Of a stretch of 13,572 bases of DNA, positions 1 through 1,877 are shown in pieces. Where the stretch lies: the IMG/VR virus record IMGVR_UViG_2703719354_000003; one strand, written 5' to 3'. The position numbers and the translations under genes are program-made. How positions within the stretch are numbered: position 1 is the first letter of the stretch; every line of letters begins with the position of its first letter. The notes beneath the pieces are model-generated. The model searched no databases. It was not told the DNA's origin and saw nothing but the letters and a program-made list of their open reading frames with translations. Origin of the DNA: a virus (Duplodnaviria > Heunggongvirae > Uroviricota > Caudoviricetes).

Positions 1-220
1 CATATACCTGGTTGCTGATCGCCCCTCCGCACAGGGGGATTCACCATGCCAGTTTCTTTTAACAAACTCCCCGCAAACCAGACAACAGTCAACCGCCTGA
101 ATTGTGAGGTATTTAAAAATTTCAACGGGTAACTGATACCCTGCTAATCGCCTGATGCTTTCTTTTTCAGCAACGGGAAAGCAACAACCACCACACCCAC
201 CAGCCGCCCATTTACCACAA

Positions 221-246
221 ATAAAAAAGCCTTCAGGACTGAAGGC
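221..246 (-). terminator. Intrinsic terminator hairpin (GCCTTCAG-GA-CTGAAGGC) followed on the minus strand by a T-run
   Basis: Perfect 8-bp inverted repeat at 229-236 / 239-246 with an A-run at 221-228 on the plus strand (T-run on minus); overlaps the stop codon of the 233-430 ORF. Confidence 0.5.
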
Positions 247-430
247 GTCTGTAACAACCGAACTGATAGTCTGCCAGACCCGCCATAACCAGCTGGGTCA
301 GTATTAACTGGCAGCGTTCGCGTGAAAGGTAAGTATTCTGCGCAATCTCCCCGACGGTCGCCGGTTCGGTGACGCTTAATTCATTAAACACCACTCTGGC
401 GGTTTCGGTCATATCCTGCTGTTTCAGCAT
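233..430 (-). CDS. Small hypothetical protein (65 aa), possibly a winged-helix DNA-binding protein
   Basis: ORF with stop embedded in a terminator hairpin; helix-rich composition with a weak, by-eye resemblance to small PapI/FaeA-type winged-helix regulators. Weak RBS. Not hydrophobic, so not a holin. Confidence 0.4.
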   Translation of the reverse strand: MLKQQDMTETARVVFNELSVTEPATVGEIAQNTYLSRERCQLILTQLVMAGLADYQFGCYRRLQS

Positions 431-543
431 GTCTTTTTCCGGTTAACGTGACACACCAATAACTCTTGTCGAAAAAGCCAGCAAGCTGAAAGACCGGTAT
501 TCACCGCCGCCAGCGCGTTTACTGTACTGGACCGATTTCAGCC

Positions 544-570
544 ATAAAAAAACCCGCTCGCGGCGGGTTT
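544..570 (-). terminator. Strong intrinsic terminator (bidirectional hairpin), candidate tR-prime-like terminator downstream of Q
   Basis: CCCGC-TCGCG-GCGGG stem-loop at 553-567 flanked by a 7-A run (546-552) on plus and TTT after it; on the minus strand the stem is followed by 7 T. Lies about 60 nt downstream of the Q stop. Confidence 0.6.
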
Positions 571-627
571 AAGCTGTGTGGCGTAGTAACCACTCTTAAC
601 ATACTGACATACTTTTTGCGGACCGCG

Positions 628-1020
628 CTAATCATTTTTTACTTTTTTGGGCAGCCAGTCGTCCATCTCCAGCCTTACACCCAGCATCGACAGACATCCG
701 TCAATAAATCCTTCAGCAATCTGCATCTCAATTCGTATTGCCTTTTCGCTCTTCTTTCTTGTTCTGGCAATCTGCCTTTTTGATATGCGCAGCAGATAAT
801 GAGCTACCAGCAGCGAATACTCGTCCGGTTTTTTCTTCTTCAGGCGCGTAAGGCAGTTTTCGATGATAAGGCCGTCATCATCGCTGCAGGCCGGGCGAGG
901 TTTAGCGGTGGATGGTAAAAGGCCTTTAAATCCAGCAGCTATCGGAGAATAGTCCACCCCGGCGTTACCACTTGCCGCCCATGCCCCCCAGCGTTCGAGA
1001 ACCATCTGAATATCACGCAT
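628..1020 (-). CDS. Phage antitermination protein Q (phage 82 / QuuD-like family)
   Basis: Protein begins MRDIQMVLERWGAWAA..., which I recognise as the N-terminus typical of small Q antiterminators of E. coli lambdoid prophages; ATG at 1020-1018 overlaps the upstream gene stop (TAATG). The ORF-track start at 1029 is an upstream GTG. Confidence 0.7.
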   Translation of the reverse strand: MRDIQMVLERWGAWAASGNAGVDYSPIAAGFKGLLPSTAKPRPACSDDDGLIIENCLTRLKKKKPDEYSLLVAHYLLRISKRQIARTRKKSEKAIRIEMQIAEGFIDGCLSMLGVRLEMDDWLPKKVKND

Positions 1021-1877
1021 TATTCGCACTCACCAACCAGATTGAGAATGACCGTTGCACCGTCGTCTTCCATGCATTCACCCTTACCACTTGCCAGAAA
1101 CCAGCGGCACACCTCCACGGCTTCAGCGCGTGTCACCGGTTTGATGGTTGCCAGCAATTTTTCAAGGTAGCGCTCCCGGTCATATACCGATTCGTGATGC
1201 TCAGAGTAACCAAACTCATCGCCCTGTTCTTTAGTTGCAGTGTGGCGAACACTGTAGAGCCAGTCCCAGTAAACGAACTCGCGAACAACATCAGACAGCG
1301 TATAAGGCTCAGGCAGCACATCGCGATATCCATCAACAAATGCCCGACGCTGTTCATCAATTTCGTTCATGCGGCTGCCGCCAATGCTTCCGGCTTTTTT
1401 CTCTGCCGCAGTCCAGCCCCAGAGATGATCGTTGATAAATTTCTGGGAAGACCTGATGACCCGCTCTGCTTCCACATCTTCGAGCGCTGCTTCATAGCTA
1501 CCAAACGTAGCCCTGACTGATGCCGCTTTTTTGATGTTCTCCCGGGCGTTCCTGATAACCTGCGCAGGGTTATCCATGCCGATGATGCCGAACGCAACCT
1601 GGAAAGGTTCGTAACCATTCGCCAGCAGATAACGCGAATAGCGTTCCTGAGCCTCTTTTGGGGAAATTTTAATTTTCACCAGCGCAGCCTCAGCAGCATC
1701 CAGATGTGCGGGTTCGTTCAGACGGATAACCTCCAGCACCCAAAGATAAGCATCAGTCTGCTTATGCCCGGTGATTCTCCGTTGCTCTGGCAGGGGCTTG
1801 ATGTTTGCGAGGGCGGAGCTGTACGCTGCCGTCGGGATGGTGAATAGTGCTTTATGTTCGTTATTATCAGTACGCAT
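1020..1877 (-). CDS. Hypothetical protein (285 aa) in the replication-to-Q (nin-like) position
   Basis: Long ORF translationally coupled both to the primase (TAATG at 1875-1879) and to Q; no motif I can assign with confidence. Confidence 0.6.
   Translation of the reverse strand: MRTDNNEHKALFTIPTAAYSSALANIKPLPEQRRITGHKQTDAYLWVLEVIRLNEPAHLDAAEAALVKIKISPKEAQERYSRYLLANGYEPFQVAFGIIGMDNPAQVIRNARENIKKAASVRATFGSYEAALEDVEAERVIRSSQKFINDHLWGWTAAEKKAGSIGGSRMNEIDEQRRAFVDGYRDVLPEPYTLSDVVREFVYWDWLYSVRHTATKEQGDEFGYSEHHESVYDRERYLEKLLATIKPVTRAEAVEVCRWFLASGKGECMEDDGATVILNLVGECE

Follow-up and report, generated by a model that had tools for sequence, protein, structure and literature searches.

A conserved winged-helix gene at the probable head of a Stx-phage-like late operon

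The closest described counterparts of the locus studied here come from phage 21, from the Shiga toxin (Stx) prophages Sp5 and Sp15 of E. coli O157:H7 Sakai, and from the phages SfV and phiP27. The antiterminator Q21 of phage 21 binds two 8-bp direct repeats in its promoter that constitute the Q21 Q-binding element (QBE) (bioRxiv 10.1101/651190), and the protein family PF06530 was named the Q21 family by Yin et al. (PMC9388147). For the Sakai Stx2 phage Sp5, the account of the leader in Sy, Lan and Tree (2020, PMC7547250) gives a start of the late promoter PR' mapped by differential RNA sequencing (dRNA-seq) and a terminated RNA whose 3' end lies 258 nt downstream. The region downstream of a Q-antiterminated PR' has been described as an insertion site for morons, with convergent small RNAs (sRNAs) between the moron and a conserved open reading frame (ORF) (Tree et al. 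2014, PMC4104026), and STnc100, Pas sRNAs, TerB and a sialate esterase have been placed in the same interval (Zhu, Shabalina and Storz, bioRxiv 10.64898/2026.05.13.724894). SfV runs in the order Q, terminator, orf47, orf48 methyltransferase, terminator, S, R and Rz, and phiP27 runs from its Q gene L21 through L23, the methylase L24, tRNAs and stx2e to holins and endolysin. Here we compare with these systems positions 1-1029 of a 13,572-nt stretch of viral DNA (IMG/VR record IMGVR_UViG_2703719354_000003; "the window" denotes this whole stretch), where a Q gene is followed on the minus strand by two terminators, T1 and T2, that flank an ORF of 65 codons, orf65. We read this segment, with a probability of roughly three in four, as the place where the late operon of a lambdoid, Stx-phage-like prophage begins.

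The layout of the window is that of an ordinary, somewhat eroded head of a Stx-like lambdoid late operon and belongs to a type already known. The initial annotation had noted no lysis genes after Q, but the apparent lack is an effect of truncation at the window edge. A contig found via an exact 285-aa protein, JNMP01000064.1 (GCA_000700405.1, L016), is 100% identical to window positions 1-11877 and reaches 1758 bp leftward past window position 1, where it carries, in order from the edge, the remaining part of an STnc100 element, the 5' end of a nanS-p-type sialate esterase gene and an IS66 insertion sequence (IS). Because this extra DNA holds STnc100 and the 5' end of the esterase, which usually comes next among the late genes, the late operon continues beyond the window edge. 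The esterase fragment comprises the first ~290 nt of the gene (~96 N-terminal residues; DNA 97% identical to the E110019 gene), at which point, ~520 bp left of the window, it is interrupted by an IS66-family transposase gene in opposite orientation (L016 12110-13635), and the contig ends inside IS66. Following the sequence to the left, as had been suggested, therefore recovered further late-operon DNA and reached no lysis genes before IS66, and the holin and endolysin genes of the source genome are not visible because the assembly breaks at the IS. If real, the IS66 insertion would be polar for late transcription. The exact 285-aa protein occurs on only 8 contigs, all of them 10-50 kb in length, and both contigs that were read end within ~1.8 kb of orf65. 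Within the window, 232 bp remain after orf65, in line with the ~230 bp first estimated.

The relatives of the window carry the late genes that lie beyond its edge. In 15 related prophage and phage loci, holin and endolysin genes, usually with Rz, lie within 1-6 kb, and head and tail genes follow where the DNA fetched extends that far. Ten further contexts of the exact orf65 were inspected, eight of which have holin and lysozyme genes within about 4-6 kb; in the remaining two (L007 and L009), one of them degraded by IS elements, no holin or lysozyme gene was seen. The order Q, T1, orf65 homologue, an M.EcoGII-type adenine DNA methyltransferase of ~351 aa, holin, endolysin and Rz is found in SfV, mEp460, phiP27, phiNP and yong2, with the tRNAs and stx2e of phiP27 placed ahead of the holins. 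The E110019 prophage, with a backbone 99.9% identical, has the esterase and then holin, YdfR, lysozyme, Rz, terminase, capsid, portal and tail genes, and NCTC9112, which matches window 11-1020 at 97% identity over Q, orf65 and flank, has this set of late genes as well. In relatives that carry the ORF, lysis and structural genes thus do follow it as a conserved part of the late operon, the arrangement that the initial annotation had named as one that would refute its reading. SfV shares with the window the succession of Q, terminator and orf47 (95% identical to orf65) as well as the same T1 hairpin, although its Q comes from a different family, and phiP27 shares the same T1 hairpin and L23, which is 100% identical to orf65 over 63 of 65 residues. 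Unlike both phages, the window has no methyltransferase gene, which has been deleted, and it stops ahead of the lysis genes.

The Q gene occupies positions 628-1020 on the minus strand, with a product of 130 aa from the likely ATG start at 1020 (or of 133 aa if translation began at the GTG at 1029), and its reading frame is intact. The protein covers the whole Pfam model PF06530 (Phage_antitermQ; model positions 1-118 of 118, expect value (E) 3e-52, with a score of 175.9 bits where 26 suffice), also hits phrog_79 (E 4e-48), described as "anti-termination protein Q-like", and is 48% identical to the 144-aa Q of Sp5. The resemblance to phage 21 comprises a Q of family PF06530, a direct-repeat candidate site in the promoter and a downstream hairpin and U-run terminator, whereas the window Q is only distantly similar to Q21 itself (PDB 6p18; E 1.4e-7) and the binding site and pause element are proposed here by comparison.

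Downstream of Q, a tandem 8-bp direct repeat, AGTATGTC/AGTATGTT (598-613, minus strand), forms the putative PR' core and overlaps the presumed -10 element. As Q21 binds two 8-bp direct repeats, the repeat at 613-598 is a candidate Q-binding element and, by this analogy, probably serves as one; by a rough estimate, such a repeat would arise by chance in 200 bp with a probability of ~0.08. At the corresponding position the Sakai phage carries a different sequence. The start of transcription was placed by comparison with Sp5, for which the published Sakai coordinates are shifted by 142 relative to NC_002695.2, an offset deduced from the fit of a promoter-like site and of the second terminator. 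With this offset, the Sakai PR' start falls 22 nt past the Q stop codon, and the Sakai transcript opens AGUGGUUAC...GCCAC and continues into a GC-rich hairpin and seven U at +24 to +52. This initial transcribed segment aligns to window 602-546 with 81% identity, and we therefore infer that the window transcript would start at ~594 and that T1 would lie at +25 to +51. The likeness to the Sp5/Sp15 StxS locus thus includes a Q of the same family, a homologous initial transcribed region and first hairpin, and a promoter ~20-30 nt past the Q stop. The two loci differ in what follows, since the Sakai leader extends into a non-coding RNA of 258 nt from which the 74-nt StxS is processed, whereas the window has a leader and a protein gene.

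T1 (570-544, minus strand; stem 570-550, U-run to 544) emerged from both a pattern scan and conservation and has an 8-bp stem with 5 GC pairs, U7 and a folding energy of -14 kcal/mol, and T2 (246-223, minus strand; stem 246-229, U-run to 223), found in the scan, has a 7-bp stem and U6 at -11 kcal/mol, with the orf65 stop codon (235-233) within its 3' arm. Both terminators named in the initial annotation, the tR-prime-like element at 544-570 and the second one beside the ORF, were therefore borne out as hairpins with U-runs, the first of them placed by alignment to the mapped Sakai start. The scan returned 3 terminator-like sites in 1.4 kb as compared to 1.8 ± 1.3 in shuffled sequences, and because this count is no higher than chance, the case for T1 and T2 rests on conservation. 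Seven phages of five genera have a T1-type hairpin at a distance of 85-130 nt ahead of the ORF, every orf65-bearing phage examined conserves T1, and the form AACCCGC..GCGGGTT followed by a U-run recurs in SfV, mEp460, phiP27, Citrobacter phiNP, Klebsiella Kp4866-6 and Hafnia yong2. NCTC9112 retains the hairpin with loop and stem altered, and in SfV the position is annotated as a terminator. The DNA common to prophages with four Q families extends from window 193 to ~552-570, with its border inside T1. Conservation and position together support T1 as a putative tR'-type terminator, the first in the leader of the late transcript.

Between the two terminators lies orf65 (233-430, minus strand; phrog_331, E 1e-37), an accessory late gene of 65 aa. 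Its AlphaFold model (predicted local distance difference test score (pLDDT) 92) is a soluble winged helix of the form H-H-H-beta-hairpin, which agrees with the soluble, winged-helix-like protein initially described. Pairwise ratios of nonsynonymous to synonymous substitutions (dN/dS) of 0.04-0.41, with dN 0.031 and dS 0.77 against SfV, indicate strong purifying selection and therefore a translated gene, and both length and frame are conserved over five genera. A homology search, which the initial annotation had proposed, placed relatives of 63-67 aa in Escherichia, Shigella, Salmonella, Klebsiella, Citrobacter, Buttiauxella and Hafnia. The family is narrow, since an exhaustive search through 1.84 billion representatives turned up no more than 62 relatives, most of them fragments, and reached no distant annotated family. 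The exact protein nevertheless occurs in 14113 blocks of the searched collection behind four Q families (PF03589, PF06323, PF06530 and PF06576), and, of 5426 complete E. coli genomes, 2267 (~42%) carry the cassette (window 225-545), in up to 8 copies. The cassette is thus an old conserved module in functional phages (SfV, phiP27 and mEp460), so that the earlier idea of an inserted Q-dependent cargo gene stands as far as a non-lysis accessory gene heads the late operon and fails as far as the insertion would be special to the phage of the window. In many Stx phages orf65 opens the series of late genes, and the block of methylase, tRNA and stx comes immediately after it.

Foldseek searches of PDB and BFVD with orf65 matched only generic winged helices (OhrR, MarR, IclR) at template modelling (TM) scores of about 0.8, and the top matches to O-methyltransferase dimerisation domains were judged coincidental, since the enzyme encoded next to orf65 belongs to the unrelated beta class of DNA methyltransferases. 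Under its NCBI name, TrmB, orf65 matched Pfam PF01978 only below the gathering score (18.1 bits where 25.6 are required, E 0.0024); orf65 shares with TrmB family regulators the predicted winged helix-turn-helix fold, but its 65 residues make up the winged-helix domain only, with no dimerisation or effector-binding domain. No NCBIfam family matched orf65, a PDB sequence search returned nothing meaningful for it, and a marginal PADLOC match to SWIM_XIII (E 0.003) was set aside. Among subtypes, the third helix (RCQLILTQLV) is invariant, and the second helix and wing differ strongly between the window/SfV subtype, with an isoelectric point (pI) of about 5, and the mEp460/cdtI/Stx2c subtype, with a pI of 9.6 (~50% identity).

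In the mechanism that we propose, Q (Q21 family) would be the last early gene and PR' would lie ~30 nt past its stop codon. When Q is lacking, most transcripts would end at T1 after ~50 nt, and those that leak through would end at T2. When Q is made, it would load onto RNA polymerase at PR' and carry it through T1 and T2, with readthrough covering orf65, STnc100 and the esterase and, in intact relatives, also holin, endolysin, Rz and the structural genes. The data show the gene identities, their conservation and synteny, the deletion described below and the continuation of the contig, whereas the position of PR', its dependence on Q and any function of orf65 are what we infer.

Several points weigh against this reading. 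PR' is a weak sigma-70 match that falls below the threshold of the pattern scan, and the presumed pause element, TACTAC, lacks the final T of the Sakai counterpart (TACATT at +8). T2 is conserved only in a close E. coli group (phiP27, L005 and L008) and was undetected in distant phages. The lysis genes of the source genome are out of view, given that the contig stops in IS66. The protein itself is acidic in most subtypes, with a pI of about 5, which is unusual for a DNA-binding regulator, and the phage records with more distant methylase homologues outnumber those with orf65 by 40. Lastly, judging by the Sakai analogy, T1 may be leaky and orf65 possibly expressed in lysogens, because the homologous first hairpin of Sakai is passed by some polymerases and the authors place tR' at +258.

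This last point opens onto an alternative that we consider unlikely, in which orf65 is a lysogenic-conversion gene made from a constitutive PR' through a leaky T1, as an mRNA of ~370 nt running from PR' to T2 without any Q, with T2 as the effective tR'. An argument for it comes from Sakai Sp5, where the homologous hairpin is passed and a 258-nt RNA ending at the second terminator is detected in lysogens. The placement of T2 directly 3' of orf65 fits as well, and so does the silence in lysogens of the methylase beyond T2, as expected if T2 is a tight stop. Set against these, T1 has the make-up of a canonical strong terminator (GC-rich stem of 8 bp, U7), and no other non-coding feature of the cassette is conserved so well, whereas distant phages do not conserve T2. 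The Sakai hairpin itself (L015 1869-1897) is strong, followed by U7 at +24 to +52 and homologous to T1, and it goes unmentioned in the parts of the StxS paper that were consulted; it may be a leaky first terminator giving an RNA of ~50 nt that was missed by size selection.

The reading as a late-operon start has also to be weighed against decay, that is, the possibility that the prophage is cryptic, its lysis and structural genes truly gone from the source genome, and the stub of Q and orf65 decaying. Relative to the related locus L005, a deletion of ~2.2 kb took the methyltransferase gene, three tRNA genes, TerB and most of DUF3927, of which a remnant of the last 16 codons and the stop remains at 144-197 (minus strand; codons 197-147), recognised by the tblastn match GVVVVAFPLLKKKASGD. 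The junction lies at the microhomology GCTGGTGG.GTGT, and two segments lying 2.2 kb apart in L005 (10238 and 12397) overlap at window 193-210. The same deleted arrangement, with the same junction, is present in 14 complete E. coli genomes, and it explains why orf65 is an orphan in the window, its partner methylase having been lost with the deletion. In addition to this loss from the accessory region, IS66 sits in the esterase with the contig end there, and the near-identical E110019 prophage is visibly decaying. In that prophage (L002; 17083-18221), we observed a frameshift in Q, an internal stop in the terminase gene, a frameshift in the portal gene and an IS3 insertion, on account of which this copy looks defective.

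Still, we hold a cryptic state of the source prophage to be doubtful. Short-read assemblies normally break at IS copies, the 5' end of the esterase gene shares 97% identity with E110019, where full late genes follow, Q is intact in the window, and no deletion junction to host DNA was seen. The only losses found are the 2.2-kb deletion within the accessory region and, just outside the window, the interruption of the esterase by IS66, and they fall short of showing the deleted late region of the earlier suggestion.

The same deletion bears on what orf65 might do as a member of the late operon, in that its usual neighbour is the lost methyltransferase. Phage 1720a-02 carries an identical orf65 and a methylase 98.9% identical to that of L005. 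This 1720a-02 enzyme has been named as closely related to M.EcoGII, an adenine methyltransferase without sequence specificity, and such prophage copies of the methylase are silent in lysogens (Murray et al., PMC5778455), a silence that fits a position behind Q-controlled terminators. Judging from synteny alone, our best guess, held with low confidence, is that orf65 may be expressed late, during lytic growth, and either act together with the methyltransferase next to it or regulate that enzyme. A more specific proposal, which we regard as rather improbable, is that orf65 acts as a small winged-helix adaptor or controller that times or targets methylation across the genome of progeny phage DNA, or else is made in lysogens via a leaky T1 and tunes downstream genes, in many Stx phages including stx. 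The near-obligate pairing with the methylase in five genera, the invariant third helix and the leader block described below are compatible with orf65 as a dedicated partner or as a tuner in lysogens. Should it be true that orf65 controls the methyltransferase or late and stx expression, this would matter moderately to work on how phages counter restriction and on toxin regulation.

In the leader between T1 and orf65 (431-543, minus strand), aligning 8 phages and prophages that represent 5 genera revealed a conserved block, TTGCTG...AGAGTTA...GTGTGTCAC, at 484-444. The form TTGCTG-N11/12-AGAGTTA-N4-GT(A/G)TGTCAC is kept from E. coli to Hafnia phages, and the flanking leader has diverged. A pattern scan found no sigma-70 site of 9/12 matches between T1 and orf65, and hence no promoter of orf65's own. 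Within the block, GGTGTGTC at 457-450 could form base pairs with GACATGCT, which spans the start codon; a consensus RNA fold showed no covariation for this predicted stem of leader and start codon, and its energies were non-significant except in SfV. It is possible that the block serves as a promoter, an operator or an element of translational control. Its conservation where the remaining leader diverged, together with the weakness of the PR' candidate at 598-613, would suit a different arrangement in which T1 only ends the early (PR) operon and the block, read as TTGCTG-N17-TATTGG, is a late or private promoter of orf65. We find this improbable, because the block is common to four unrelated Q families whereas Q needs a Q-specific site beside its promoter, because the -10 would be without its essential final T, and because the segment aligned to the mapped Sakai start sits upstream of T1.

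Very improbable, lastly, is that the ORF is untranslated and its region gives a regulatory RNA of the StxS kind, a notion prompted by the same position as StxS, from PR' to a terminator, in a region rich in Hfq-binding sRNAs, and contradicted by a dN/dS down to 0.04 at dS 0.77, the length and frame kept over five genera, a confident predicted fold and homology to Sakai over +1 to +52 only. StxS itself was excluded as an identity for the leader, as BLAST and alignment against Sakai Sp5 matched only +1 to +52 and the 74-nt StxS part is unrelated. A search of the RNA from PR' to T1 against Rfam at a relaxed threshold gave Trp-leader at 20.7 bits and isrK at 18.3 bits, both far below the gathering scores, and isrK is further ruled out by the genuine isrK copies in relatives, which sit in the early region.

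The position of the cassette also invites comparison with morons. The criteria that Juhala and colleagues are said to have set out in 2000 reportedly include variable presence among related phages, an own promoter and terminator, and a distinct base composition. Like a moron, orf65 is polymorphic for presence and absence at one site between near-identical phages, and it has a terminator, T2, downstream. In the E110019 prophage, identity to the window is 99.8% down to window 433, and then a TerB pseudogene and DUF3927 stand in place of orf65, joined directly to the leader. As for a promoter of its own, our scan found no consensus match for orf65, and the conserved TTGCTG-N17-TATTGG block may or may not act as one. 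Unlike that of a moron, the GC content of orf65, 0.52 against 0.49 for Q and 0.51-0.52 for the neighbours, gives no sign of foreign origin, so that orf65 fits the definition of a moron in part only. The locus nevertheless matches the described moron and sRNA insertion site, with its STnc100, AsxR/AgvB and Pas sRNAs, in position and in the STnc100 element that then follows.

That STnc100-family sRNA or leader element takes up positions 1-78 (minus strand), where its first 78 nt score 48.7 bits against Rfam RF02076, just above the gathering score of 47 (model 1-78 of 206, flagged as cut at the 3' end), before the window edge cuts it, and the full element at L016 11800-11972 scores 108 bits. In relatives, one or two diverged tandem copies of STnc100 lie between the accessory genes (stx, or TerB and DUF3927) and the esterase or holin genes. 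Sakai Sp5 has STnc100 directly past stx2B with the AsxR anti-sRNA opposite, and no anti-sRNA partner was found beside STnc100 in the source contig.

Two minor features complete the segment and its flank. The 285-aa gene (1020-1877, minus strand; phrog_6204), for which no Pfam or NCBIfam family matched, lies between the primase gene and Q, and its stop codon overlaps the start of Q. On the plus strand, a weak terminator-like hairpin of 5 pairs at 417-429 lies opposite the start codon of orf65 and is probably due to chance.

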